A stretch of 42,135 bases of DNA from Candidatus Hodarchaeota archaeon (lineage in GTDB: Archaea > Asgardarchaeota > Lokiarchaeia > Sigyniarchaeales > SOKP01), in assembly GCA_048887225.1 (NCBI GenBank), contig JBHLJY010000023.1:1-42135 (forward strand). Reading direction: 5' to 3'. Made by a program: the position numbers and the translations under genes. This document shows positions 20,245 to 34,382 of the stretch, piece by piece (the first letter of the stretch is position 1; every line of letters starts with the position of its first letter). The notes beneath the pieces are model-generated. The model ran no database searches and was not told where the DNA came from. It saw nothing but the letters and a program-made list of their open reading frames with translations.

Positions 20245-20475
20245 TTAAGAAAGATTTTTCTCTTTCCATTTTTTCATAAAATTTTTAAAACTCTTATTAG
20301 AGATTCCAAGGGAATTGAAATTATATTCACTCAAATTATTAATAGAATTAGGTTTATGTTTTAAATTTGAGGTTTTTCTAAATTTTAATTCCCAATCGAA
20401 ATATGAAGATACTTTAGTTAATGCTTTTGACATGCTAATTTTGTAACTCTTTTTATTAAAAATAAATTTAAACAC
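20245..20475 (-). CDS. Possible small basic protein (ATG-started 62-aa form more likely)
   Basis: Short K/N-rich ORF convergent with guaA. No family recognised. Confidence 0.3.
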   Translation of the reverse strand: MFKFIFNKKSYKISMSKALTKVSSYFDWELKFRKTSNLKHKPNSINNLSEYNFNSLGISNKSFKNFMKKWKEKNLS

Positions 20476-20663
20476 CGTGTAAATTTTCTAAATTCTGAAA
20501 AAATAATAAAAATTTATGTTTAACTGATTTATTCTTATCTCCATTTTCCGTTACAATATAACGAAATTAAACGATATAACACATTATTTTTCTTAAAAAA
20601 TCTAAGAGATTATAGCATAATCAACACGACAAAAATTTGCTCTTATTTATTTTAACAAAATAA

Positions 20664-23081
20664 TCATCTTAAAGAGGAATCACTTTTGAAGCATAACAAA
20701 TCTTTTTGAATATACCTTCTGTTAAAATCAGGCTTCAACAATTCTTCAAGTTCGGGGAATTCGAACGGAAAGATGTTTTCAAACGCTCGTTTTAACAACT
20801 CTACATATTTTTTTTTATCATACTGATGCTTCCTTTCGTTGTAAAGATCTGAAAGAATTACTTTTTTTTGTGGAAAGTCAGGATCGGCTTCTGCGTTGAG
20901 GATGATGTATTGTACATTTTTTCCCGCTGAGACTACAACTCCAGATCGCTCCAGTTGCCTTGCTGCAACAGCTTGATATGAATTTACCTTGTAGGCAGAA
21001 GGCTTATGAGAGATCCTTTGTTTTATTGTCAGCTCTTCTCTCGATACTTTACCTAAGAGTATTCGATCTACATATTCAAAGAGTCTTTTCTTTGCGTCGG
21101 GAATTCTATGCATAAATTCTTTGACAGAAGTCGCATCTTGAAACTCATCAATAAGCGCATATTGGGCTTCTTTTACAATTTTTGGCATGTCGCGTCGTCG
21201 GACTTCAATGCCTCTCACCTTAAGTTCTCCATCACTTTTGATACCCCAGTAATGATTGAGTGCAGGTACATCAGGTTCTGCTCGGGATGGAAGGAATACG
21301 ATTACATTATATCTTCCTTCCCAATTCATGGGAATTTGTGTCTCTTCTGAAATTTCTTCAGCAATTTTCTTGGTTATCCTGTCGAATTCCTCAGCAGTCC
21401 TTCCCTCTGTGTCTTTAAGCCATAATGAATCCACGATTCCGTGAATGATTCTGCACCCATAATTTTCGGCAATCTCCGTAGCACGTAAAAGGAATTCACG
21501 AGCGAAAGCACATACCGTCTGGTGGGCTTCTATCTTCCCAAAGCGGGCATTTTTGAATCCCAAATATCCAAAACTCACAACGAGCACCCATTTCAGTGCT
21601 ATGTCAGTAAATTTATAGCGAATTTCATCATGAGTTTTGTTATATTCTTTGTACTGCAACCGCTTTCCCAAGGGTAGGCTGATAGACTTTGCGATGATAC
21701 CTCTTCGCTTGGTACAGATATGAAAATTCAGTCCAGGTACCTTAATGCCAGTTCCATCATCCTTACAACACTTGCAGTTAATTGTTTCCGAAGAAACATT
21801 GTATTTCGCCATCACCGAAGGATACATCGAAGAGAAATCAAGCTCTACCACTTGATCAAACACTCCTATAATTGGTTCGAAGATATGACCCCCCCGGTCT
21901 CCACTTATCAAATCCATACCAGAACGAAATCCCTCAGGACTTTTTTTAAATGGTGGGATTAAATGATCGAGCTTATAGGCATTATAGAATTGAATAGACT
22001 GCAATGCCCCTCCGATTGTAACTCTTGATAACCTTTGGAGAGGGACTCGCGAGATACGTGCTACTTCAATCACGCCAGGAATGTTTCCTTCGGTGAAGTG
22101 AAGGCTGGCGTAACTGTTCGTATCCAGATGAAATCTTCCCGTGAAATAAACTTGAGTCTTTGAGCGGCGTCTAATAATTCCATAAGACATGTAATGATCT
22201 GAACCCCCTGAAAGTTCAAAGAGACAGTTTTTGAGAGGTGTTTTGTCTCGAGAGAAGTAAAGATCGTTTGATACATGATTTTCTGACGCACGTGCTACCA
22301 AATATGGAAACACAAACTCGTCTCCGTTCTGCGTGAGAATTATATCGGGATCGATCTTCTCAATCACTCTACTTATTGTTTTCAAATTATCGGCCTCGTC
22401 AGCCAAATCGATCAGAATTCTGCGCCTTTTGTAGCCATCTGCTCTTGGAACATTGTTTTCATCATTTTCCACGATGCTTACTTCAGTGTAAGCAAGAGGG
22501 TCGTTGTAGTACGCTCTAATTCCGCGTTTCTGAACCTTGATATCTAACCACACAGCCTTTAACGGGGGCAATTCATAAAATAGTTCTTCATTATCGTCTT
22601 TCAACTCTAAAGAGATTAAACGCATAACTTTTTCTCTCTTCTTTTTATCTTTTTCGATTTTCACCGCAAATTTACAGCGAGACATTGGGAATAAATCATT
22701 TACATAAAAATACATCTGAGCGATCGGTAGATCTGTATTATAGAGCGTAAAAATCCCTAAATCGTCAATTTCGCTGATCACTTTTTTTAATACCGAAGGT
22801 TTTGCCACCGAAACACCAAAAATTTTCGTTTTCGTATGATCCTCTAACTTAACATATTTTTCACAGATCCGCACATCTTTCACATTGGGATGAGCCTTTA
22901 GAATGGTTCTTAACCCCTTTAAATCGTTTCCAGCACTTTTCTTTGGGACAGCAAAAAATTCAGGGCAAAATTCCTGAAGTATTTTTAAAACTCTCTTTCG
23001 TCTTTTAACCCAAAGAATAATCCCATCGTTATACGTTGAAACATCCAAAAGCCAGGCATCAAAATGCACTTGAGAAACCAA
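20664..23081 (-). CDS. polB2: Family B DNA polymerase PolB2 (exonuclease-dead, error-prone/damage-associated type)
   Basis: Motif A LDFSSMYPS, PolB2-type motif B KWVLVVSFGYLG and motif C HGIVDS. Exonuclease motifs are degenerate (WLDIK; NGDEFVFPYL). Confidence 0.92.
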   Translation of the reverse strand: MVSQVHFDAWLLDVSTYNDGIILWVKRRKRVLKILQEFCPEFFAVPKKSAGNDLKGLRTILKAHPNVKDVRICEKYVKLEDHTKTKIFGVSVAKPSVLKKVISEIDDLGIFTLYNTDLPIAQMYFYVNDLFPMSRCKFAVKIEKDKKKREKVMRLISLELKDDNEELFYELPPLKAVWLDIKVQKRGIRAYYNDPLAYTEVSIVENDENNVPRADGYKRRRILIDLADEADNLKTISRVIEKIDPDIILTQNGDEFVFPYLVARASENHVSNDLYFSRDKTPLKNCLFELSGGSDHYMSYGIIRRRSKTQVYFTGRFHLDTNSYASLHFTEGNIPGVIEVARISRVPLQRLSRVTIGGALQSIQFYNAYKLDHLIPPFKKSPEGFRSGMDLISGDRGGHIFEPIIGVFDQVVELDFSSMYPSVMAKYNVSSETINCKCCKDDGTGIKVPGLNFHICTKRRGIIAKSISLPLGKRLQYKEYNKTHDEIRYKFTDIALKWVLVVSFGYLGFKNARFGKIEAHQTVCAFAREFLLRATEIAENYGCRIIHGIVDSLWLKDTEGRTAEEFDRITKKIAEEISEETQIPMNWEGRYNVIVFLPSRAEPDVPALNHYWGIKSDGELKVRGIEVRRRDMPKIVKEAQYALIDEFQDATSVKEFMHRIPDAKKRLFEYVDRILLGKVSREELTIKQRISHKPSAYKVNSYQAVAARQLERSGVVVSAGKNVQYIILNAEADPDFPQKKVILSDLYNERKHQYDKKKYVELLKRAFENIFPFEFPELEELLKPDFNRRYIQKDLLCFKSDSSLR

Positions 23082-23082
23082 T

Positions 23083-23352
23083 TTATTTATCCTTCAGCTT
23101 TCCTTCCAATTCTTTAATCTTTTTTCCTAATTTCTCGATTTTCTTCTCTTGCTCGAGTGCGCAGGACATGAATAGGATTTCCGAAAGCATTGGACGTGCG
23201 CTTAAGCTTCCAGCATCAGCGTGAATTCGAGCAAAATTCATTAACTTATGAAAAGTTTCTTGATCTTCAGGTCTAAGCGCTCTTTTAAAATCCTTCCAGC
23301 TTTTAATTTCGTGTTCTAACGCAGGTCTGAAAGGAGGTACTGTGCGACCCAT
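23083..23352 (-). CDS. Small PolB2-associated protein (arCOG07300/PPB2-like)
   Basis: MGRTVPPFR...E...W..F.RALR.ED...F pattern. Its stop lies 1 nt before the polB2 start. Confidence 0.85.
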   Translation of the reverse strand: MGRTVPPFRPALEHEIKSWKDFKRALRPEDQETFHKLMNFARIHADAGSLSARPMLSEILFMSCALEQEKKIEKLGKKIKELEGKLKDK

Positions 23353-23361
23353 ACTGATTAC

Positions 23362-23420
23362 CAAAAAGAGTAATTCGCTGTAGAATTTAAAAAAAAATAC
23401 ATCGAAAATTTTCTGATTTT
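23362..23420 (-). promoter_or_regulatory. Promoter of the PPB2-polB2 operon: TATA (23386-23391) plus operator-like box (23403-23420)
   Basis: Aligns without gaps to the iRadA promoter at 33677-33735. Confidence 0.7.
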
Positions 23421-23493
23421 TGCAACTAACTAAATTTTAACAAAAATGTAAAGTCTGAAGTCTTATATTAGATAGATCATTTTTGAGCTTCCT

Positions 23494-24027
23494 TCAGTCA
23501 CATGAAGAGAAATTACTTACAACTTTCTTTGCCAATAGTTCAAAAGTTTCATTTACGTTTTTTCCCGTAAAAGAAGAAGTCTTTAAATAACTAAAACAAT
23601 TATCACTTTTTTCCAAAATCTTTGATACGGAATCGTCAATTTCCCTTGTGTTCCCATTAATCATATCGTATTTAGATCCAATAATTAATGTAGGGAAATC
23701 TCCGTATTGAGATAACAAACTCAACCAAAAATCTATCTGGGTTAAAGTGCTAAAACGCGTTAAATCAAATAAAACTAAAGCCCCTATAGTTCCTTCTAGC
23801 CAATTAACCTTAGAGAAAAGAGCTTTGAATTGTTCTTGGCCTCCTAAATCCCATAATAAAAGCTGATAATTTTCTCTTTCAATTACAATTTTCTTAGAAA
23901 AGAATTCTAATCCCTTGGTTATTTGTGTGTCGATTTCAAATTGTTCGTTCACATATCTATTTAATAGCGTTGTTTTCCCTACGCCACCATCTCCAGAAAT
24001 AACTATTTTAATAATGCGATCTAACAT
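23494..24027 (-). CDS. Rab/Ras-like small GTPase (eukaryotic signature protein)
   Basis: G1 GDGGVGKT, G2 T, G3 WDLGGQ, variant G4 GSKYD and G5 TSS. Confidence 0.9.
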   Translation of the reverse strand: MLDRIIKIVISGDGGVGKTTLLNRYVNEQFEIDTQITKGLEFFSKKIVIERENYQLLLWDLGGQEQFKALFSKVNWLEGTIGALVLFDLTRFSTLTQIDFWLSLLSQYGDFPTLIIGSKYDMINGNTREIDDSVSKILEKSDNCFSYLKTSSFTGKNVNETFELLAKKVVSNFSSCD

Positions 24028-24254
24028 AAATTAAACCATACTCATAAAAGTCTTATACCCTTTACGTAGATCATAATCCATTATATATTTAAATAATATG
24101 TTAGTAATATTTGTTGTTTACACAAGAACATAAAAATTTTAGATACTTCAAGCGATATATTTTTATTCGTTGATAAGATTCATTTAAATTATTATACATA
24201 AAATATTTATCTGATTAATTTGAATGTTAATAAAATTAGTTATAAGATAATAAA

Positions 24255-24668
24255 ATGAGTAAAAAGTTAAAAAAATGGCACGCTCCTTGCGGGATTTATT
24301 GTAAAAGATGTCCTGGCGTGAAGGCTTACGGTTGTAAAGGATGCCGAGAACAAGAGGGTCAAATATATAAGTTACCGATATGTAAAACATATCAATGTGT
24401 CACAAATAAGGGATACGATTTTTGTTATGAATGTGAAGATTTTCCTTGCGAAATGCTACAGCCTATCGTTAATTTTGAGATTTTTGCTCCTCACAACTCA
24501 AAAGTATATAATTTAGTCATGATAAAAAAGCTTGGATTAGAAGAATGGGATAAAATTTGTGATATGAAAACAACTTTTTATTATCAAGGCAGAAAAGTTC
24601 AATATGGAGGAGATCCATTAACCTTAGAAAAAAAGGATCCAAAAATGTATAAAAAGAAAACAAAATAA
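24255..24668 (+). CDS. DUF3795 family Cys-rich protein
   Basis: APCGIYCKRC..CKGCR...C...C...KG.DFCYECEDFPC. Confidence 0.85.
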   Translation: MSKKLKKWHAPCGIYCKRCPGVKAYGCKGCREQEGQIYKLPICKTYQCVTNKGYDFCYECEDFPCEMLQPIVNFEIFAPHNSKVYNLVMIKKLGLEEWDKICDMKTTFYYQGRKVQYGGDPLTLEKKDPKMYKKKTK

Positions 24669-24693
24669 ACATATAAAAAATAGTGATTTTACT

Positions 24694-25575
24694 ATGCTGT
24701 TAAAAGGCAAAAATATAATAATTACAGGTTCTGGTCGAGGTATCGGAAAAACTGTTGCGATTGCGTGTGCTAAAGAAGGAGCAAATGTTGGATTAACTTC
24801 AAGAACTTTGGATGAATTAAAGAATACCAAAAAAGAGGTTGAAACCTTAGGAACTGGAGTTAAGGTTGTATTAAAAACTGCCGATATTACAAAATATGAG
24901 GAAGTTGAAGAAGCTTTCAAGTATTTCCATAACGAATTAGGTTTATTAAATGGAATTATTGCAAACGCAGGTGCTTCATGGATGGGAAATACTCATGATT
25001 TTGACCCAGAAAGATTCGATAATATTCTTAAAGTTAACATACTTGGAGTATTCAATACGTTTAAAGCGGCATATCCTTATTTGAAAAAAGACGATAAAAA
25101 AGCAAAAGCACGATTCTTAATAACGGGAAGCGAAGCTTATCCTCAGGGAATGCCTAAATTTACTGCTTATGCAGCAACCAAATATGCTACCGTAGGACTA
25201 CAAAGGAGTTTAGCTGCTGAATATAAAAGAGAAAACATAACCTTTAACCAGATATTGCCGACTATGGTCGATACAAGAATGCTCCGAGGAAAGAAAGCTG
25301 GTGATGGAAACAAGCCAAGTGGTGTATTGAATCCATGGGACTTAAACGATTATTATATCTTTATAATGTCAGATGAATCAAATAAAGTGAATGATCAATT
25401 AATAATGTCGAGCGAAATTGAAAGGGTTAAAAAGATAATTAATGGCGCGCCATTAGATAAAAAGGAAAATTGGGAGATTTTCAAGTATTATCTTGAAGAG
25501 AAATCGCCAAAAACTTTTAACAACGTTAAAAAACTTAAACAATTTATTGAATTTCTTTTAACTCGTTCAAAGTAA
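24694..25575 (+). CDS. Short-chain dehydrogenase/reductase
   Basis: TGSGRGIG, NAG and YAATK. Confidence 0.92.
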   Translation: MLLKGKNIIITGSGRGIGKTVAIACAKEGANVGLTSRTLDELKNTKKEVETLGTGVKVVLKTADITKYEEVEEAFKYFHNELGLLNGIIANAGASWMGNTHDFDPERFDNILKVNILGVFNTFKAAYPYLKKDDKKAKARFLITGSEAYPQGMPKFTAYAATKYATVGLQRSLAAEYKRENITFNQILPTMVDTRMLRGKKAGDGNKPSGVLNPWDLNDYYIFIMSDESNKVNDQLIMSSEIERVKKIINGAPLDKKENWEIFKYYLEEKSPKTFNNVKKLKQFIEFLLTRSK

Positions 25576-27390
25576 TTTAGAATAAGTCCCAAATTTTGGA
25601 AATTTTTTCAATTGGTCTGATTTAAATATTGGTCCATCTTTACAAACTGAAACATTATTATCTTCTCCTAAACAACAAGAACCACACAGTCCAACACCGC
25701 ATTTCATTTTTCTTTCAAGAGATGCTTGAACTTCAATGTTTTTAGACTCTGCAATTTTAAGAACTTCTTTCATCATAATTTCAGGACCACATGTCATAAT
25801 TAAATCAATATTTTCACTTTTAATAATATCTTCAATAGTCTCAGTGACAAAGCACTTTTTTCCAATGGAACCATCATCAGTGGTACACAATGTATTAGGG
25901 ATAAGTTCAATAAGTCTATCTGAAAAAATTAAAGAGGACTCATCTTTCGCTCCTATGGCAACGAAAACATTTTTCTTATTTTGCTTTAAAGGTTCAATTA
26001 AAGACGTGAGAGCAGCAATACCCATCCCTCCACCAACTATAAGAATATTTTGAGCATCCTCGTAATTCCAAGAGGTTCCGAAAGGGCCTCTTATTCCAAT
26101 ACTATCACCTTCTGTTAACTCAAATAATTTAGCAGTACCTTCACCTATTTTTTGAACTGTAATTTCAAGTAAATTTCCATCTATATTTGAAATTGACATT
26201 GGTAAGAAATCGATATCAGGAAGCCATAAGATAACGAATTCTCCCGGTCGATATGCTTTCGCGATTCTTGAATTTCTAATAATGAAACTCTTTATCTCAG
26301 GAGAGTGTTCAACGATTGATTCTATCTTTATAATATCTGTTTTACTTCTGGTAATGTCTAAAATTAATTCTTCATTATCTTTATCAAGGTTTTTTACTTC
26401 AAAAATTCCTTGGTTCACAGCTAATTCGAAGATTTCTTTTCCTCTTGGTGTTCTAATTATAAAAGTTCTCCAATCCTTCTCGCTACCAACATTTCCTACA
26501 GAGATATCAGCAAAAGAGGCGGTATAATCAGAACAAGAAAAACAGGCATTTCTGATCGAATTATCGTATAAATAATTTAGAGGAATTTCTTTTTCTCCCG
26601 ACTTTGTTTTAATTTTCATGTTAAAATCGTTTTTAATTGAATCAATAGAGTTTATTTCACTCGGACTTATATTATATACCTCAAAACATTTTATTAATTG
26701 TTGATTATGAAAGGTACCAAAACAAAATGTCCCGATTGCTAAAGAAACCAAATCATATGCCTCATAATCGAAGCCTGGGTGATTTTGTAATTTCCTTAAG
26801 CCTTGGATTTGGCATGGTGTTCCTACAATTGCTATATCAGTAAATTCTTTGTTAATAGCGTCTCCAACTAAAGAGAGTATAGGACTTTGGCTAGGTTTAT
26901 ATCCAATGCCTCTGAATAAATCGTTTTGGTTTTCTGCAACCATCGGAAAAGGTCTAAAATATTCATCTTTATCAGTTATAATTGACGCATCAATTAAACC
27001 AGCTTCCATGGTTGTATTTAGTAACGCAGTTATGGGTCCAGCGTGTAACGGATACTTTTTTGCTGCAGCATCCGTAAGCTTCACCGATACAATTTTTATA
27101 AAGTGCCCTAATATTTTATCATATTCCTTCCCGAATACCCATTTATCCAGCAAAGATAGTGGTATTTGATCTATTCCTGTTTTAGGACAAGTATTATAAC
27201 ATAAACCATATCCATCGCGACAAGTAGCTATATCTTTACAAGACCCATCCTCAATTGGTACTTCTTTTTCATCGTCGAATTTAATATTTGCACAAAATGC
27301 TCCACATGCCCCACAATAGACACATTTGTCTGTTTTGATTATTTCAGAGTCTAATTCTTGCCATCCTTTTTTTAATTTTTCAATGTACAT
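25567..27390 (-). CDS. Fusion of an FrhB/FpoF-like (F420-binding, 4Fe-4S) domain and a PyrK/NfnA-like FAD/NAD(P)/[2Fe-2S] domain
   Basis: N-terminal half: CVYCGACGAFC, CYNTCP, VGTPCQI, GTFC and CFSCSDYTASFADISVG. C-terminal half: PGEFV.LW, GGGMG.A, TDDGS, CGPE.MM and CGVGLCGSC..VC.DGP. ATG 27390 follows the upstream stop. Confidence 0.85.
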   Translation of the reverse strand: MYIEKLKKGWQELDSEIIKTDKCVYCGACGAFCANIKFDDEKEVPIEDGSCKDIATCRDGYGLCYNTCPKTGIDQIPLSLLDKWVFGKEYDKILGHFIKIVSVKLTDAAAKKYPLHAGPITALLNTTMEAGLIDASIITDKDEYFRPFPMVAENQNDLFRGIGYKPSQSPILSLVGDAINKEFTDIAIVGTPCQIQGLRKLQNHPGFDYEAYDLVSLAIGTFCFGTFHNQQLIKCFEVYNISPSEINSIDSIKNDFNMKIKTKSGEKEIPLNYLYDNSIRNACFSCSDYTASFADISVGNVGSEKDWRTFIIRTPRGKEIFELAVNQGIFEVKNLDKDNEELILDITRSKTDIIKIESIVEHSPEIKSFIIRNSRIAKAYRPGEFVILWLPDIDFLPMSISNIDGNLLEITVQKIGEGTAKLFELTEGDSIGIRGPFGTSWNYEDAQNILIVGGGMGIAALTSLIEPLKQNKKNVFVAIGAKDESSLIFSDRLIELIPNTLCTTDDGSIGKKCFVTETIEDIIKSENIDLIMTCGPEIMMKEVLKIAESKNIEVQASLERKMKCGVGLCGSCCLGEDNNVSVCKDGPIFKSDQLKKFPKFGTYSKLL

Positions 27391-27391
27391 A

Positions 27392-27988
27392 TTATTCTTT
27401 TTCACCCTCAAGTTGTTTAAGAAAATATTCTGCTTCAACTTTTCCAAGTTCAAAAGCTTCTAAATTCTTTTCTAAAGTGACTTTTGGTACAAAATCTTTA
27501 AGCGTCTCAATTGCGGCTTGCTCGGAGATAATTTTCGAAAGAGTAGTAAAAGCTCCAAAAAGAATTGAATTCCCATAAACTCTATCTCCAAATTTTTCTA
27601 AAGCCATTCGCTGAACTGGTATACCTAACGATTTAAATTTTTGTGCGATCCTGAATTTTTTAATTGTTGAAGGATCCCATACTAAATAACCAGTATTATC
27701 TCCTTTTTTCAAAGAATTTCGTTTAACATCTTTAGCAGATTCTTCAGAAAGAACGATTAAAAAATCATAGGGCATTAATGCTTTAGGATAATCAATTTGT
27801 TTTGTATCCCTATCTAAATCAACTACAACTTCAGCCCAACACCTTCCACCTCGAGCTGCAGCTGAATAAGCTTCAGTTTGAGTAGAAGCTAAATTTTCGT
27901 AGATTGCACTTGCCATTATTATCATTTTACTGAGAGTTATTACACCTTGCCCACCAAAACCTGAAATTCTTATTTCATATCGATTCAT
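27392..27988 (-). CDS. 2-oxoacid:ferredoxin oxidoreductase gamma subunit
   Basis: GFGGQGVI, YSAAARGG, NSILFGA and N.EAFELG. Confidence 0.92.
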   Translation of the reverse strand: MNRYEIRISGFGGQGVITLSKMIIMASAIYENLASTQTEAYSAAARGGRCWAEVVVDLDRDTKQIDYPKALMPYDFLIVLSEESAKDVKRNSLKKGDNTGYLVWDPSTIKKFRIAQKFKSLGIPVQRMALEKFGDRVYGNSILFGAFTTLSKIISEQAAIETLKDFVPKVTLEKNLEAFELGKVEAEYFLKQLEGEKE

Positions 27989-27992
27989 TTAA

Positions 27993-28910
27993 TTATTTTC
28001 CCTCCATGGCGACTCTCTGAATTTTTCTATATTCTTCCGAATATTCAGGTTTATCTGGCTGGTATCTAAATTCTCCTATTATATACCTATTAAATAATTC
28101 CTCTTCGCTCATGAATTTCGCCTGATTTATTCGCACCGAAACATTTTTTATCCAATCAAACATTTTTCCTCCTGAATCCATTTTTTCTCCTTTCTCCCCT
28201 ATTAATTCAGAACCTAGATTATCTAAATTTTTTCGTCCAAAATAAGTTACACAGGGAGTAATAATTTCAATGACGGAACAACCCTTATGCCTTAATGCTT
28301 TTTTAAAGTATTTCATATAAGTACGTGGATGAGCAACAGTCGTTCTTGCTACATAAGTAGCTCCTGCCGCTAGAGCAATTTTTATACCGTCGCTTCGATT
28401 TTCAAACATTTTATACGGGGTGGTTGAACTTTTTGCTCCATAGAGCGTAGTTGGTGCTCCTTGACCGCCTGTCATTCCATAAATACTATTATTAAAAATA
28501 AATATAATGCAATCAAGATTTCTTCGGCATAAGTGAATAAAATGATTACCTCCGATACCTAAGCAATCTCCATCACCAGAAAAGATTATTGGTTTCATCT
28601 TAGGATTTGCCATTTTCATTCCAGTTGCTATAGCAGGAGCTCTTCCATGAAGTGTTACAATTTTTTGGGAATCATAATGAACTAATAATAAAATTTGAGT
28701 ATAACATCCAATTCCAATAACTAAAGGGTATAAATGGGGATCTAATTTTTCATCTTCAAAAACTCGAGTATAAATTTGACCAATTATTCCATATCCGCAG
28801 CCTGCACAAAACCTAGAAGAATAATTACTCAACAAACGTCCTGCGTAGGATTGTGTGAGATAAGGGTGTTCTGGTTTCTCGCTTGGATACATTGGAAGTT
28901 CTCCTGACAT
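27993..28910 (-). CDS. 2-oxoacid:ferredoxin oxidoreductase beta subunit
   Basis: CAGCG, GIGC, HGRA, TPP-binding GDGD...NN.IYGMTGGQ and PCVT. Confidence 0.93.
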   Translation of the reverse strand: MSGELPMYPSEKPEHPYLTQSYAGRLLSNYSSRFCAGCGYGIIGQIYTRVFEDEKLDPHLYPLVIGIGCYTQILLLVHYDSQKIVTLHGRAPAIATGMKMANPKMKPIIFSGDGDCLGIGGNHFIHLCRRNLDCIIFIFNNSIYGMTGGQGAPTTLYGAKSSTTPYKMFENRSDGIKIALAAGATYVARTTVAHPRTYMKYFKKALRHKGCSVIEIITPCVTYFGRKNLDNLGSELIGEKGEKMDSGGKMFDWIKNVSVRINQAKFMSEEELFNRYIIGEFRYQPDKPEYSEEYRKIQRVAMEGK

Positions 28911-30082
28911 TATTTTGCCACCTCCCTAATAACTTTTAAGATATCATCTGGATGATGGAATTCTGCTACTTTAGGAATTTTAATAAGTGGGATATCGAGT
29001 TTAGTCACTCTTTCAACTTGTTCTGCAATTATTCCCGTATAATTCAACTCTGGAACTATAATTGCCTTAGCATCTTTTACGATTTCTTTTACTTTTTTTT
29101 CTGGAAAAGGCCAAACAGTTATTAATCTATACATCCCTACTTTTATACCTTCTTCACGTGCTATATCAATTGCTCTGTAACTCACCCTTACTGGTAATCC
29201 GTATGTTATAATAATTATTTCAGCATCATCTAATTTGTATTTCTCAGTCATACAAATTTTATCTTTATTTGTTTTTATTTTATCAATCATCATTTCGACA
29301 AATCGCTGTGGTTTAGGTGACAAAATTCCTTCAGGTCCATGAGGAGTATGTAAAAACATTCCTGGACAATAATCAGTACCAACAATAGGAGGTTTAGGAA
29401 TTATATATTCACCAGTTTTATCATCCATATATGAAAAGACTCTTGGCGTAATTTCATCTGGGACTTCTCGCTTTATAACTTTTTTTAAAATTTTTTCCTT
29501 AGGGGGTATATTTACCACTTCGTGTAGGTGTCCTAAATAAGCATCAGATATAATAAAAACGGGGCAGCGATAAATTTCCGCGTAATTAAAAGCTGTTATA
29601 GTTAAATCAAAAAGTTCTTGACAGCTCATCGGTGCTAATGCAATGACTTCAAATTCACCATTTCCAGAGAAGCGTAATAATCCTAAATCGTTGTGATGAG
29701 GATCTGTTACTGAACCCGTACCGGGGCCACAGCGTTGAACGTCGCATAAAACGAATGGAACTTCAAGATTTGCTGCCATCGAAATAGTTTCTACCATTAA
29801 AGAGAGCCCAGGACCAGATGTAGCTGTCATTGCTTTTGCACCTGCCAAAGAAGCGCCGATTACGGAATTTATTGAAGCTAATTCATCTTCCATTTGCATG
29901 CAACAACCTTCAATCTCAGGCATTCTTTTTGCGAGATGTTCAATAACTTCGGTACTTGGAGTAATAGGGTATCCACCAAAAAATTTTAAACCAGCCGCAA
30001 TAGCCCCTTCTGCTACTGCAACATTACCCATCATTAAATGCTTACCTTCTGGTAAGAACCTTTTATCATTATTACCACTCAT
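28910..30082 (-). CDS. 2-oxoacid:ferredoxin oxidoreductase alpha subunit
   Basis: GYPITPSTE, QMEDE, TATSGPG and QR.GP.TG. GGTGA RBS before ATG 30082. Confidence 0.93.
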   Translation of the reverse strand: MSGNNDKRFLPEGKHLMMGNVAVAEGAIAAGLKFFGGYPITPSTEVIEHLAKRMPEIEGCCMQMEDELASINSVIGASLAGAKAMTATSGPGLSLMVETISMAANLEVPFVLCDVQRCGPGTGSVTDPHHNDLGLLRFSGNGEFEVIALAPMSCQELFDLTITAFNYAEIYRCPVFIISDAYLGHLHEVVNIPPKEKILKKVIKREVPDEITPRVFSYMDDKTGEYIIPKPPIVGTDYCPGMFLHTPHGPEGILSPKPQRFVEMMIDKIKTNKDKICMTEKYKLDDAEIIIITYGLPVRVSYRAIDIAREEGIKVGMYRLITVWPFPEKKVKEIVKDAKAIIVPELNYTGIIAEQVERVTKLDIPLIKIPKVAEFHHPDDILKVIREVAK

Positions 30083-30095
30083 AATTTTCACCTTA

Positions 30096-30383
30096 TTAAG
30101 TTCTAGCCTTTTCGGCTAAATTTTCGTTTTTCTCTTCTTCTAAGACATATATAGCCCAATCTGGGCATCCATATTCACATCTACGGCATGCTACACAATA
30201 TTTCTCTTTTCCTTCCTTAACCTTCGGAATATAAGCAACTCGCATATTCAACATATCACTTATTTCTAATATACCTGTAGGACAAACAGAGACGCATATT
30301 TCGCATCCTCCGCACCTATCTTTGTTTAAGAATAAAGAAAATTTCTTTTCCTTGTTCTCTATTAATTTAGGAATTTTTCTCAA
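30096..30383 (-). CDS. 2[4Fe-4S] ferredoxin (oxidoreductase delta subunit)
   Basis: CGGCEICVSVCP and CVACRRCEYGCP. Confidence 0.92.
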   Translation of the reverse strand: MRKIPKLIENKEKKFSLFLNKDRCGGCEICVSVCPTGILEISDMLNMRVAYIPKVKEGKEKYCVACRRCEYGCPDWAIYVLEEEKNENLAEKART

Positions 30384-30472
30384 CTCATTATTCTTTTTTT
30401 AATATTTTCATATAATATTTAATTTAATATTAACTGTATTTTTTATTCTACAACGAATTTAATACTACTTCT

Positions 30473-31798
30473 TTATTTTTCTTCAAGAAAAAGATTTTTG
30501 TCCTTCAAAATTTTCTGCTTATATTGATTTAAAAGCGGTGGACAAAGACCTTTTTCAGTAGCTTCTTTTTTCATTGTTTTCATAATTTCTGCTAGATTGA
30601 CTCCAGCAGGACACCAATTAGTGCAATTTTCACATCCCGTACATAAAAACAATCCATCTTCTACCGCAGCTTCAATACCATTGTGAATATAGTCCCTGAG
30701 AATATTAACTGCCCCTATTCCATATTTCGATGCAAAAACATTCCCAAAGGCTCTAGAAGCGGTACATATAAGATCACAACTCTTGCAACTGATACATTTT
30801 AATATATCTTTATAAAATAGATTTTCTTTTGCTGCTTTCATCCGCCAATCGTCTACAAGAATAACAACAACTTCCTTAGCACCATACATTCCAAATACTC
30901 GGACGCCTTGAACGTCTGAAGTATTTGAAGGAGCAGAAATTAAACTGATATAAGCTCCATCGACATTCATAATTCTTTCTTGTATCTTTGAGCATAATAA
31001 TGCGTCAAATACTGTAGGGACTATTTTATGAATTCCAGCTACGATTATATGTTTCTCAGTTGCCCGTGTGATGATACTAATATTGCCCTCATTTTCTACT
31101 AACACAATAGAACCATCATCAGCAGAAATAGCATTTGCAGATGTAAGTGAAACCTTAACATTATTAAGTAGTTCTGGACGATAAGTTCTTCTGTAATAAT
31201 CAACTATAGCTTGTGCTGTTGGTTCAACCTCAACATTATATTTCTCTTCTATTTTGGCAACAATCTCATCCACTGTGAATTGGACACCTGGTCCCAAGGT
31301 AAAACTTGGAAATTTATAGTCCATTAGTTGACAAAAAACATCGCCAAGGTCAGTTTCTTTAATTGTAATTTTATTTTTCTTCAATACTTCAACAATTCCA
31401 GCATCCTTTGCTTCTAATGATTTTGATTTATAGAGTATTTTGTTATCCCCTAATTCTTCCTTAAAAACTTTTTGGGCTTCTTCGTTTGTTTTAGCATAGT
31501 ATACTTTAAAATGATTAGTTTTTTCCATTCTTTTCAAACATTTTTCTACATAATCTTCAATGTTTTCTACAAAATCCTCTCTCATCTGTATAATCTGATC
31601 TCTATATCTATCAACAAACTCCCTACTTGTATCCTCATACAAATATCTTAAATCGTAAGATTTGTATTTAGCAGTACAACCTAATTTCCAAATATCTCCA
31701 AATTTAGCATATGGGGATTCTTCATCCCTTAATTCTTCTAATCTATCTTTAACTTTATTATAAATTTTTTTTCCTTTCTCAGACACTAATAGGATCAA
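30473..31798 (-). CDS. LUD-domain iron-sulfur protein (LutB/LldF-like); start probably GTG 31786
   Basis: KSKS, ETDLG, SAN..A..G....ENEGN, GIHKIVP and two C-terminal CxxCxxCxxxC motifs. Confidence 0.88.
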   Translation of the reverse strand: MILLVSEKGKKIYNKVKDRLEELRDEESPYAKFGDIWKLGCTAKYKSYDLRYLYEDTSREFVDRYRDQIIQMREDFVENIEDYVEKCLKRMEKTNHFKVYYAKTNEEAQKVFKEELGDNKILYKSKSLEAKDAGIVEVLKKNKITIKETDLGDVFCQLMDYKFPSFTLGPGVQFTVDEIVAKIEEKYNVEVEPTAQAIVDYYRRTYRPELLNNVKVSLTSANAISADDGSIVLVENEGNISIITRATEKHIIVAGIHKIVPTVFDALLCSKIQERIMNVDGAYISLISAPSNTSDVQGVRVFGMYGAKEVVVILVDDWRMKAAKENLFYKDILKCISCKSCDLICTASRAFGNVFASKYGIGAVNILRDYIHNGIEAAVEDGLFLCTGCENCTNWCPAGVNLAEIMKTMKKEATEKGLCPPLLNQYKQKILKDKNLFLEEK

Positions 31799-32522
31799 CC
31801 CCTTCCATTAATCTAATGATAAAATCTTCGATTTTAATTACAGGTGTCTTTATTTTATTTTCTTCTCTAATTCGGGTTAATGATGTATAGCAAAATGGAC
31901 AAGCAGTTAGCAGGGCTTTAGCCATTCTCATCTGCTTAAAAATCAATAAAGAATTATAATCGCTATTTTCTTTAAAAATTGAATAAACTCCTCCTCCTGC
32001 TCCACAACATAATGAGTTTATTCTATTATTTTCCATTTCTCTAAGTTCAATAGGACCTTTAATTGAGTTGATAATATCTCGTGCTTCCTCGATAATTGGA
32101 ACGTCAGCATTCCTTAGATGACATGCATCATGATAATATATGTTGAGTTTTTTTCCAGCATATTTTAAATTTAATTTTTTTAAATTTTCGGGTCGGTTTA
32201 TAAACTGCAGTAAATGCTGCACTTTAACATTAAAATCTAAACCTACATATTCGGGATAATAATGAGTGAGATAATTGTAACATCCAGCACAAATAGTAAT
32301 AAGTTCACTCACATCATTTTCTTTAAACCATTCATTAACAAATTCTATGTGTTTTCGTAATTCCTCGTCGGATGAGATGTGATAAGCTAAACTTCCACAG
32401 CAAGGAGCATTTTCAAGAATTTCGTATTCATTGTCTAAGAATTTAATTAATTTTTCTGCATTTTTGCAGGTATCTAAATATTTAGACCTTGATAAGCAAC
32501 CTAAAAAAATTAGTTTAGACAT
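31779..32522 (-). CDS. CCG-domain Fe-S protein (LutA/GlpC/HdrB-like)
   Basis: FLGC, CCGS, CAGC, YHDACHL, CCGAGGG and CPFC. Confidence 0.88.
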   Translation of the reverse strand: MSKLIFLGCLSRSKYLDTCKNAEKLIKFLDNEYEILENAPCCGSLAYHISSDEELRKHIEFVNEWFKENDVSELITICAGCYNYLTHYYPEYVGLDFNVKVQHLLQFINRPENLKKLNLKYAGKKLNIYYHDACHLRNADVPIIEEARDIINSIKGPIELREMENNRINSLCCGAGGGVYSIFKENSDYNSLLIFKQMRMAKALLTACPFCYTSLTRIREENKIKTPVIKIEDFIIRLMEGVDPISV

Positions 32523-32668
32523 ATATTCTAAAAGAGGAAAAAAAAAATAATCTTTTTTGTTAAGAAACATAGGAATAATTTTTTTTATTCTAATAAAAAA
32601 AAGCTCTAAAGTTGTTATGGAGGAAAAAAAAGTTTATAAAAATTTTTTAGAGCATTCTTCGAAAACGA

Positions 32669-32803
32669 CTAATGATTTTTTTTCCATTCCCTATAAGCTT
32701 TTGTTATTTTCCCACAATGGATTGCTTTCTTTCCAGTTTCCTTCTGAAATTGTGCTTGTAATTCCTTTTCAGTTATACCAGAAGGATTTTTCCTTTTTGC
32801 CAT
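32669..32803 (-). CDS. 44-aa micro-protein not in the ORF track
   Basis: ATG at 32803 to TAG; translates as MAKRKNPSGITEKELQAQFQKETGKKAIHCGKITKAYREWKKNH. Confidence 0.55.
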   Translation of the reverse strand: MAKRKNPSGITEKELQAQFQKETGKKAIHCGKITKAYREWKKNH

Positions 32804-32921
32804 AATTTTTCAAATCTTCTAAAAAATATATCGTTTCATATATAGTTTGGATAAATTATTTTATTGAACATTTAAATATTTTGTTGTTAAAAAGACAGCC
32901 TCTAACCTTCACAATTTCAAG

Positions 32922-33674
32922 TTAAAACCAGCAATCCAATTTAGCATTTTTCAGAGGATTTGACAGCTTCCTTTTAGGGGTTCGGGATTTCCATTTTCGA
33001 AGACGATTTTCGGCTTTGAAGGGATGTTGCACAAGCACATACTCCACATAACGCTCGTTGTCGTTTATCAATACCAGTACGCTCCCGAAATGAGAAAGAA
33101 TCTTTCCGCCCTTAGGTCTAAGAAGGGAATACTCGTTCAAGGGGGCAGTTAAAACAATTAAAGGTTTGGTGTTTGAAAGAATTTTTTTGATTCCCCCTAT
33201 TGTCTTTAGCAAGTCTTCGAAAGTCTGTTTTTCGTAACTTTGAAACAAAGTCGTGATCCCAGAGATTAGCACAACCTTGATATGTTCAAGCGTAGAAAGT
33301 CTGTTCTCCAAAAGTTCAATCATCTGATCCCAAGTAAACGCCCGAGCAATAATAATGTTTTCTAAGACTGTTCGAGGTGAAAGATGTTGGGAAACTGCAA
33401 ATTTGCTTACATTGTAAGGATTGAATCGATTGTTTCCGTCAATAAACGCAACTTTAATCCCATCTCCGAGACCCCCATTAGTGAAAGCCTTTTGTGCAAT
33501 AACGGCAGTTGTTAGTAGAATTTCGGTCGTCTTTTTTTTATCTCCGTATAACAAATAGACTAAATCTTTATGAAATCCCCCCGATAAAAGCTCATCGAGG
33601 GGTGAATCACCACTTGAAACGAGCGGAATTTCATTATTTCTTTTGTATACCCTGAATCCTGAATCGAACGGCAT
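32922..33674 (-). CDS. Inactivated RecA/RadA-like protein (iRadA, PolB2-associated type)
   Basis: SSG...LDELL.GGF RecA-fold start, degenerate Walker A (LLYGDKKKT), IDGNNRFNPY and VLENIIIARAFT..Q. Confidence 0.85.
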   Translation of the reverse strand: MPFDSGFRVYKRNNEIPLVSSGDSPLDELLSGGFHKDLVYLLYGDKKKTTEILLTTAVIAQKAFTNGGLGDGIKVAFIDGNNRFNPYNVSKFAVSQHLSPRTVLENIIIARAFTWDQMIELLENRLSTLEHIKVVLISGITTLFQSYEKQTFEDLLKTIGGIKKILSNTKPLIVLTAPLNEYSLLRPKGGKILSHFGSVLVLINDNERYVEYVLVQHPFKAENRLRKWKSRTPKRKLSNPLKNAKLDCWF

Positions 33675-33676
33675 TA

Positions 33677-33735
33677 CAAAAAGTAAAGTAACTTTAAAAT
33701 TTTAAAGTTTTAATCGCCGACAGTTTTCTGAATTT
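33677..33735 (-). promoter_or_regulatory. iRadA promoter: TATA (33701-33706) plus operator-like box (33718-33735)
   Basis: Same three-block layout and spacing as the polB2-operon promoter. The ATG is about 27 nt from TATA, implying a near-leaderless mRNA. Confidence 0.7.
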
Positions 33736-33983: not shown

Positions 33984-34382
33984 ATGTTATTACAAGCTGG
34001 TATAGCTCTCATAATTTTGTATATACTTCTTTTTATATTCTTTCTGATTTTTATAACATTATTTCTTAAAATCGGTTTAAGTTTTGTGGATGCTGATAAA
34101 ACAGAATTCGGTCAAGTGTTTGCAACAGCTTTTCTCTGTACAATAGTTATGTGGTTGGTGATAGTCCTTTTTCACTGGTTTTTACCAGGATTAATATGGT
34201 TTATTATTGCAATACTAATTGGATTGATTATATGTTGGGCTATAATTGCGAAACGACATGATATTGGATTCGGTTCTGCCATTTTTGTGACGATTATAGC
34301 GGTGATTGCTGCAGTTGTGATAATAATTATTCTGATAATTGTTATAGGATTTCTTATTGGAGTGGCTTTATGGATTTTTTAA
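33984..34382 (+). CDS. Small membrane protein with four transmembrane helices
   Basis: Four long hydrophobic segments and a GAGG RBS. Confidence 0.75.
   Translation: MLLQAGIALIILYILLFIFFLIFITLFLKIGLSFVDADKTEFGQVFATAFLCTIVMWLVIVLFHWFLPGLIWFIIAILIGLIICWAIIAKRHDIGFGSAIFVTIIAVIAAVVIIIILIIVIGFLIGVALWIF

Follow-up and report, generated by a model that had tools for sequence, protein, structure and literature searches.

A conserved box upstream of the split PolB2 genes as the putative mark of a small DNA-repair and recombination regulon in Lokiarchaeia-type Asgard archaea

The DNA damage-responsive element (DDRE) of the Sulfolobales, 5'-A(N)TTTC-3', is bound by Orc1-2 (PMC5817253, PMC6061795), and in ultraviolet (UV)-inducible Sulfolobus promoters the activating hexanucleotide lies at -44 to -39, upstream of the element that transcription factor B recognizes (BRE) (PMC5817253). 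PolB2 operons are damage-induced in the Sulfolobales (PMC11791011, PMC6061795). The family-B DNA polymerase PolB2 has as its neighbor a small helical protein that was named PPB2 and carries the motif MGRT, in a study that does not discuss promoters (the word "promoter" occurs 0 times; PMC11791011). In this work, we analyzed a window comprising an entire 42-kb contig (JBHLJY010000023.1) of a Candidatus Hodarchaeota archaeon, in which the genes for PPB2 and PolB2 are separated by 10.3 kb from the gene of a RadA-fold protein, iRadA, and in which both loci are preceded by the same short promoter element, hereafter called the box. To our knowledge, nothing is known about the regulation of DNA repair in the closest archaeal relatives of eukaryotes, and full-text literature searches returned no paper whose title or abstract deals with an Asgard promoter element or damage regulon. 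We propose, with a probability of about 72%, that in these Asgard archaea the box is the putative binding site of one sequence-specific transcription factor and the mark of a small regulon for DNA repair and recombination.

The initial annotation of the window had aligned the regions upstream of PPB2 and iRadA, and its reading of both on the plus strand, CAAAAAG-N17-TTTAAA-N11 followed by an 18-bp box, proved base-exact. The coordinates are likewise exact (23362-23368, 23386-23391, and 23403-23420 for PPB2; 33677-33683, 33701-33706, and 33718-33735 for iRadA), and the two 18-bp boxes are identical at 15 of 18 positions. Both boxes stand upstream of minus-strand genes, namely PPB2 (followed by PolB2) and iRadA. 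Read on the coding strand, the PPB2 promoter is AAAATCAGAAAATTTTCG-N11-TTTAAA-N17-CTTTTTG and the iRadA promoter is AAATTCAGAAAACTGTCG-N11-TTTAAA-N17-CTTTTTG. The elements of the two promoters are as follows.

33714 to 33735, minus strand: iRadA box, coding strand AAATTCAGAAAACTGTCGGCGA, with the core TTCAGAAAAC at 33722 to 33731; family consensus TTYAGAAAATTGTCGG.
33693 to 33706, minus strand: TATA region of iRadA, TTTAAAATTTTAAA, starting about 11 nucleotides (nt) 3' of the box and ending about 20 nt before the ATG.
33677 to 33683, minus strand: CTTTTTG block of iRadA, beside the presumed transcription start and common to the PPB2 promoter.
23399 to 23420, minus strand: PPB2-polB2 box, coding strand AAAATCAGAAAATTTTCGATGT, with the core ATCAGAAAAT at 23407 to 23416; family consensus AATCAGAAAATT, variable in its 3' half.
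23386 to 23398, minus strand: TATA region of PPB2-polB2, coding strand TTTTTTTTTAAA.
23362 to 23368, minus strand: CTTTTTG block of PPB2, beside the presumed transcription start.

Because the upstream regions of this genome (3.27 Mb, 30% G+C) are 82% A+T, the chance level of the match was measured directly. Between 0.4 and 1.2% of 6000 random pairs of 100-nt upstream regions reached the same ungapped local score (P ~0.004-0.012). Taken within the genome alone, the pairwise match of iRadA and PPB2 is therefore suggestive, being moderately unusual for a pair named beforehand, and not decisive. No other 18-mer within one mismatch was found in the 3.27-Mb genome. The CTTTTTG block occurs near the start codon in 7 of 1994 upstream regions, and the combination TTTAAA-N15-19-CTTTTTG in two of the 1994, those of iRadA and PPB2; the block is weakly conserved in relatives. 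The TATA region of iRadA ends so close to the ATG that its mRNA, with a transcription start inferred from that position, would be leaderless or near-leaderless.

Orthologous loci were gathered from 40 related genomes, and it is the conservation among them that we regard as the decisive support for the box, beyond the match within one genome. Upstream of iRadA, more than 20 genomes retain TTYAGAAAATTGTCGG, at protein identities as low as 55% and amid surroundings that can no longer be aligned, with a TATA-like run always about 10 nt after the box and the ATG 41-43 nt after it. Upstream of PPB2, AATCAGAAAATT is kept wherever this gene has its own promoter. One genus has the three genes together as a tight iRadA-PPB2-PolB2 operon, where PPB2 has a Shine-Dalgarno sequence only and a single box stands before iRadA. 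In non-redundant sets, the 8-mers of the box were present in 14 of 19 iRadA and 9 of 18 PPB2 upstream regions, against a maximum of 5 in shuffled controls, and the box keeps a fixed distance from both the TATA box and the start codon. The box is thus conserved upstream of orthologues as a promoter element whose position upstream of BRE/TATA is fixed, and it links the split PolB2 genes, as the initial annotation had suggested. The palindrome GAAAATTTTC, which had been taken as a feature of the site, is confined to this genome and its closest relatives. As the 3' half of the PPB2 box is variable, the palindrome is not a conserved feature, and across orthologues the site is non-palindromic.

These data bear on the possibility that the similarity is a non-functional relic of promoter duplication or a chance match in A+T-rich DNA. 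The similarity of the pair within the genome reaches only P ~0.004-0.012, and the operon is indeed split in this family, both of which such an explanation would accommodate. However, the box and its fixed spacing have been conserved in more than 20 genomes despite the divergence of the flanks, and it recurs at the unlinked HerA-like and RadA genes described below as well as in GC-rich genomes, where an A+T-rich word stands out. We therefore consider a relic or a chance match very improbable.

Two models of the boxed promoters were constructed. The first (R1) is a sequence-only model derived from an ungapped alignment of 47 boxed promoters (A5) and was run on 25 genomes, whereas the second (R2) was derived from the promoters of a small gene and of a HerA-like gene, both introduced below, with RadA absent from the training set, and was run on five genomes. 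In the window, R1 matches the iRadA promoter at 33696-33735 and the PPB2 promoter at 23382-23420 (expectation value (E) 2.4e-7). The statement that no such box occurs elsewhere in the window turned out to be wrong, as a matrix scan located a third copy in the gap downstream of polB2, with E 2.4e-5 for R1 and 1.3e-5 for R2. The features of this third promoter and its gene are as follows.

20474 to 20495, minus strand: third box, coding strand GAATTTAGAAAATTTACACGGT, with the core TTTAGAAAAT at 20482 to 20491; class consensus TTTAGAAAATnTnCACnCT.
20456 to 20472, minus strand: TATA region of the small gene, TTTAAATTTATTTTTAA.
20245 to 20433, minus strand: 62-amino acid (aa) gene just downstream of polB2, protein MSKALTKVSSYFDWEL...FKNFMKKWKEKNLS.

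Here the box is followed by the TATA run and by the 62-aa frame, with the ATG 40 nt after the box. In the consensus of the small-gene promoters, TTTAGAAAATnTnCACnCT is followed by TATA and the core lies 55 nt ahead of the ATG, a geometry shared with iRadA. The 62-aa protein was found in 21 of 24 other genomes of the same taxonomic family, usually encoded directly after polB2 and often in two tandem copies, and it matched no Pfam or NCBIfam family. It defines a new family and is a conserved extension of the PolB2 "mutasome" locus. Its AlphaFold model consists of two helices and a disordered linker, with a mean predicted local distance difference test (pLDDT) score of 74. A complex prediction for PolB2 and the 62-aa protein gave a score of 0.01, which weighs neither for nor against binding.

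The specificity of the box was assessed in several ways. A search of the whole genome for the core TYAGAAAAY with a TATA-like run at the right distance and an ATG frame 48-70 nt away returned five matches. Three of these are the PolB2-cluster promoters, which lie within 13 kb; the other two, one inside uvrC (contig C7) and one before a JAB-domain gene (C8), are single matches and were taken as chance. In the 25 genomes searched with R1, the best matches are the PolB2-cluster promoters, which is in part to be expected because these promoters had been used to build the model, and the informative result is that few other sites score as well. The exact iRadA-type pattern gave 33 matches, roughly half of them iRadA promoters, compared with 14 for the control. 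Beyond a few sites in one of its five genomes, R2 yielded no further strong ones. The geometry search and both models thus bear out that the box is not part of the background of unrelated promoters.

The models also pointed to members outside the window. R1, which was not trained on the HerA-like gene, matches just upstream of this gene in at least six genomes. The gene (contig C5) encodes a 508-aa HerA-superfamily ATPase with the Pfam HerA central domain, and its NCBIfam matches to HerA and CedD are both well under the cut-offs. Across the family the HerA-like promoters read AAGTCA[G/A]AAAATnnnTACTCTTATTTTCTTTAAAT, and, of 20 orthologous loci, 16 have a model match in the right orientation 60-105 nt before the start; the site of this genome is at 188853-188890 of C5. 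The top match of R2 lies 57-115 nt upstream of a zinc-finger RadA paralogue, both in the genome analyzed here (G000; contig C3, 974-1008) and in 4 of 5 further genera searched; at G017 the site was not found. The boxed paralogue of G000 (C3:1065-2279, locus L280) has an N-terminal extension with the pattern C-x2-C-x3-H-x8-H (CPECKRTHIKGKIYKEH). A regulon limited to two loci, as first envisaged, is accordingly not supported. Five units carry the box in this genome: iRadA, PPB2-PolB2, the 62-aa gene, the HerA-like ATPase on C5, and the zinc-finger RadA on C3.

Three further strong box matches in this genome (C4:110999, C4:113300, and C7:119961) lie within a 150-nt repeat and were set aside as members of a distinct repeat family whose relevance is uncertain. 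The first part of this repeat, about 80 nt long (TATTTAAATGTTTTACATTTTTGTAATAGGCGATTTAGAAAG...), is an element present in about 30 copies, arranged in clusters at a spacing of 500-1500 nt (C2:90700-110000, C6:94700-105600, C7:117400-120050, and C4:110860-113380), and matched no Rfam family; three of its copies extend to 150 nt and end in the iRadA-type box ACTCAGAAATTTGTCGG. In genome G012 of the family, at least 16 identical-scoring copies (18.9 bits, on 16 or more contigs) resemble a module of box and TATA and presumably form a repeat family.

The box was also found in sister families, whose GC-rich genomes, belonging to the same order, have GTTCAGAAATTC or GTCCAGAAATTC upstream of iRadA and the HerA-like gene. 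The form that the box takes there, TYCAGAAATTY, gave 171 matches in five such genomes, against 28 for the reversed control. In these genomes only promoter-like instances were counted, in which the box is followed after about 14 nt by a TATA sequence, a spacing as in the home family. Boxed in this sense are RadA (3 genomes, 4 genes), the HerA-like gene (3), and the iRadA-PPB2-PolB2 operon (2). An RPA-like gene, a UvrD-family helicase, and an 86-aa glutaredoxin (2 genomes) are boxed there as well, as are a TnpB gene and several conserved proteins without known role. The expectation that the box would recur upstream of repair genes is thus borne out by RadA and the HerA-like ATPase in the same family, and by UvrD, the RPA-like gene, and the PolB2 operon in the sister families. 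Candidate box-like sites were seen at the HerA-like gene and at PPB2 in a complete, single-contig sister-family genome, and the prediction may therefore be testable in culture. At three loci of GC-rich genomes (L299, L300, and L309 of G033, G029, and G027, respectively), a boxed promoter is followed by a conserved ...ATCAATACACGCATCCAACAACGCATCC... stretch with no convincing reading frame, which could represent a small RNA or else encode a short peptide rich in His, Pro, and Thr.

The genes of the split PolB2 locus and the gene that interrupts it are as follows.

20664 to 23081, minus strand: PolB2, an 805-aa family-B DNA polymerase that probably belongs to the PolB2 group and begins directly after PPB2; orthologues were found.
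23083 to 23352, minus strand: PPB2, the 89-aa small partner of PolB2, with the ATG at 23350-23352 and the N terminus MGRT.
32922 to 33674, minus strand: iRadA, a 250-aa protein of the Rad51/RadA fold, with the ATG at 33672-33674; family as described in PMC11791011.
24255 to 24668, plus strand: DUF3795 gene, encoding a Cys-rich 137-aa protein of the Pfam family DUF3795.

PolB2 matches the Pfam family DNA_pol_B (2.6e-28) and an exonuclease domain (1e-10), and its NCBIfam match to a type B polymerase is below the equivalog cut-off; its gene adjoins PPB2, whose stop lies 1 nt before the polB2 start. PPB2 itself matched no Pfam family, and its orthologues are present in 172 of 301 genomes of the phylum. 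Close homologues of the proteins encoded on the contig are labeled as Lokiarchaeia/Promethearchaeota-type Asgard archaea in public sources. In iRadA, the Pfam Rad51 match (6e-16) is restricted to residues 15-145, the NCBIfam RadA match is far under the cut-off, and the Walker A motif is degenerate, reading YGDKKKTT (GDKKKTT in place of GxxxxGK[ST]). The protein is therefore predicted to have a RadA/Rad51 fold with an inactivated ATPase site.

Between iRadA and PPB2-polB2 lie a Ras-like GTPase gene, the DUF3795 gene, and metabolic genes. By synteny, the DUF3795 gene is a family-wide conserved insert on the opposite strand between iRadA and PPB2. The PPB2 box is placed midway in the intergenic region shared with the DUF3795 gene, and no box was found at the DUF3795 gene's own promoter in this genome; we treat this gene as context of the locus and do not claim it as a likely member of the regulon. 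In genome G021, the boxed PPB2 promoter between DUF3795 and PPB2 (L040:730-1235) is followed by a leader of about 300 nt, which includes a G+C-rich, structured-looking stretch in an otherwise A+T-rich genome that may be an inserted non-coding RNA. The Ras-like small GTPase (23494-24027, minus strand) is encoded directly upstream of PPB2. At 7 of 13 loci sampled from other Asgard families (L149, L152-L155, L159, and L160), PPB2 has a homologue of it (28-41% identity) on the opposite strand, no more than about 1.5 kb upstream; since Asgard genomes hold many such GTPases, the orthology of the GTPase beside PPB2 is not proven. Divergent from iRadA, a gene for a very hydrophobic 132-aa protein without a Pfam family (33984-34382, plus strand) keeps its position in at least nine related genomes at 35-82% identity.

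The arrangement of the locus suggests how two boxed promoters may have arisen. Because one genus and other Asgard lineages have the genes in a tight operon and the DUF3795 insert separates them in the rest of the family, the ancestral state would be an iRadA-PPB2-PolB2 operon with one box, which was split by insertion of DUF3795 on the opposite strand. PPB2-PolB2 would then have gained or kept a second boxed promoter that was maintained by selection, and a later insertion of about 10 kb would have followed in this genome and its closest relative. The promoter was thus probably duplicated when the operon split, and both copies appear to have been kept under selection since, which would make them more than a mere relic.

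On the coding strand the core of the box is T-Y-A-G/A-A-A-A-A-T, followed by a class-specific 3' half that reads TGTCGG at iRadA, is TTTCGA-like at PPB2, and takes the form nnCACnCT or TACTCT in the promoters of RadA, the small gene, and the HerA-like gene. In all classes the 3' half ends about 10 nt before the TATA sequence. The core starts about 25 nt upstream of TATA; for iRadA and the small gene this start is 55-57 nt before the ATG, and the distance is greater where a leader is present. The usual distance from TATA to the transcription start is 22-27 nt. With the start inferred from the TATA position, the site would span approximately -58 to -42, directly upstream of BRE. A factor bound there would most likely aid the recruitment of TBP and TFB and hence be an activator, a role favored because the site lies where archaeal activators bind and where the essential Sulfolobus hexanucleotide sits. 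When DNA is damaged or replication is under stress, such a factor would switch on the boxed units together, in the manner of the upstream element of UV-inducible Sulfolobales promoters. Such damage or stress appears to be the most likely signal because of the gene set and because the PolB2 operons of the Sulfolobales are damage-induced.

An alternative is a repressor of the LexA kind, which would occupy the box as an operator in undamaged cells and be removed after damage. The gene content, with a recombinase, UvrD, a translesion polymerase, and a single-stranded DNA-binding protein, mirrors that of bacterial LexA regulons, and the CTTTTTG block at the presumed start of both window promoters could serve as a second operator. 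Yet the box lies upstream of BRE/TATA and not over the TATA sequence or the start, where most archaeal repressors act (PMC5817253), and CTTTTTG is poorly conserved in relatives. No LexA homologue turned up, although no search aimed at LexA was made. A repressor is, in our judgment, quite unlikely.

The location directly upstream of BRE also raises the question of whether the box is the local form of the Sulfolobales DDRE, bound by the Orc1-2-type paralogue encoded on contig C25 (16782-17972). It has the same position as A(N)TTTC, and the PPB2 box of this genome contains the hexanucleotide as ATTTTC. At iRadA the consensus reads ATTGTC, and the hexanucleotide is missing from the classes of the small gene, the HerA-like gene, and RadA. 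The genome has two Orc1/Cdc6 genes, one clearly of the initiator type and the other scoring best against Aeropyrum ORC2 and Pyrobaculum Cdc6, and this Orc1-2-like paralogue is present in 39 of 41 relatives and nearly universal in the order. However, the conserved core is AGAAAA and not ANTTTC, and a comparison of the box profiles with the 20-bp Sulfolobus consensus was not significant (P 0.03-0.6 in uncorrected column-shuffle tests), so that the specific likeness to the Sulfolobus ANTTTC element suggested at the outset is not supported. Moreover, the Orc1-2-like gene never adjoins the PolB2 locus, neither orc1/cdc6 promoter of this genome has a box, unlike Sulfolobus orc1-2, a damage-induced gene that carries the element itself, and the exact motif was not found at orc1/cdc6 genes in the GC-rich family. 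We regard an Orc1-2-bound DDRE as doubtful.

Two proteins of the locus itself were considered as regulators. The 62-aa protein is an unlikely one, as its model has no complete helix-turn-helix and the protein was not found in sister families that have the box. The DUF3795 protein was dropped as a candidate though not excluded; its AlphaFold model (pLDDT 72) gave no match in the PDB or by sequence, and no DNA-binding fold was seen.

A further alternative retains the site and the regulon and assigns them another signal, such as a cell-cycle or replication program, comparable to the eukaryotic G1/S genes, or a different stress. RadA, the RPA-like protein, the HerA-type ATPase, the NrdH-type glutaredoxin, and polymerases are also typical S-phase genes, and the sequence of the box itself specifies no signal. 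On the other hand, in the only archaea tested, the PolB2 operons belong to the genes that damage induces most strongly (PMC6061795, PMC11791011), and the replicative polymerase and Orc1/Cdc6 genes of this genome are without a box. This alternative seems unlikely to us.

Several observations weigh against the proposal that the box is the site of one factor and marks a repair regulon. The genomes compared are kin, and counts across them are not independent events, a caveat tempered by the flanks, which are less than 70% identical among related genomes and otherwise unalignable. The 3' half differs between promoter classes, which makes it possible that more than one factor is involved or that the site is composite. 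The second RadA gene and the RPA-like gene of this genome have no detectable site, and the regulon here is therefore small, about five units and far below the size of an SOS regulon. Many of the TCCAGAAATTC matches in GC-rich genomes lie within coding sequence, and the reversed control is blind to codon bias. No box was found upstream of PPB2 in other Asgard classes. Finally, the transcription start, the induction, and the co-regulation are all deduced from sequence. In view of the predicted members here and in sister families, we consider a repair and recombination regulon marked by the box to be well supported.

The box provides a precise conserved DNA word, a defined gene set with five units here and more in sister families, and a probe sequence for the regulator. 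The split locus would also show that an operon can be broken up and still be kept co-regulated by duplicated promoters. Taken further, the data could indicate a true SOS-like response in Lokiarchaeia-type Asgard archaea, in which a single activator at TYAGAAAAT upstream of BRE would switch on RadA, the HerA-type ATPase, and the PolB2-PPB2-iRadA translesion complex, joined in some families by UvrD, RPA, and an NrdH-like glutaredoxin. The two-helix 62-aa protein would then be a damage-induced effector, either a polymerase accessory protein or a checkpoint or division inhibitor comparable to SulA or p21. We offer this extension tentatively, as a possibility that falls somewhat short of even odds.

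Among known systems, the box resembles the DDRE in being a short non-palindromic element directly upstream of BRE/TATA (about -40 to -55) in archaea that lack LexA, and in being common to repair-related promoters including that of the PolB2 (Dpo2) cluster. It differs in its core, which is TYAGAAAAT instead of ANTTTC, and sequence establishes no link to Orc1-2. The Sulfolobus regulon, moreover, centers on the ups pili, the Ced DNA importer, and tfb3, whereas the genes found here are RadA, the HerA-like ATPase, and, in sister families, UvrD and the RPA-like gene. As in the bacterial SOS system, a recombinase, a translesion polymerase complex, UvrD, and a single-stranded DNA-binding protein have a single short DNA word in common; unlike the LexA box, the element is non-palindromic, its place upstream of the core promoter, and not over it as for a repressor site, suggests activation, and the regulon here is far smaller. 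The locus shares with the published PolB2 mutasome (Timinskas et al. 2025, PMC11791011) the same three proteins (with the polymerase a probable PolB2), the MGRT start of PPB2, and the inactivated RadA. In contrast to the published arrangement, the set is split by the DUF3795 gene and here also by 10 kb of metabolic genes, it has duplicate boxed promoters, and it includes an additional conserved 62-aa gene that is absent from the description in PMC11791011. The three-gene set (PMC11791011) and repair regulons with a promoter-proximal element (Sulfolobales, SOS) were thus known already, whereas the promoter word and the gene set that it appears to define are new.

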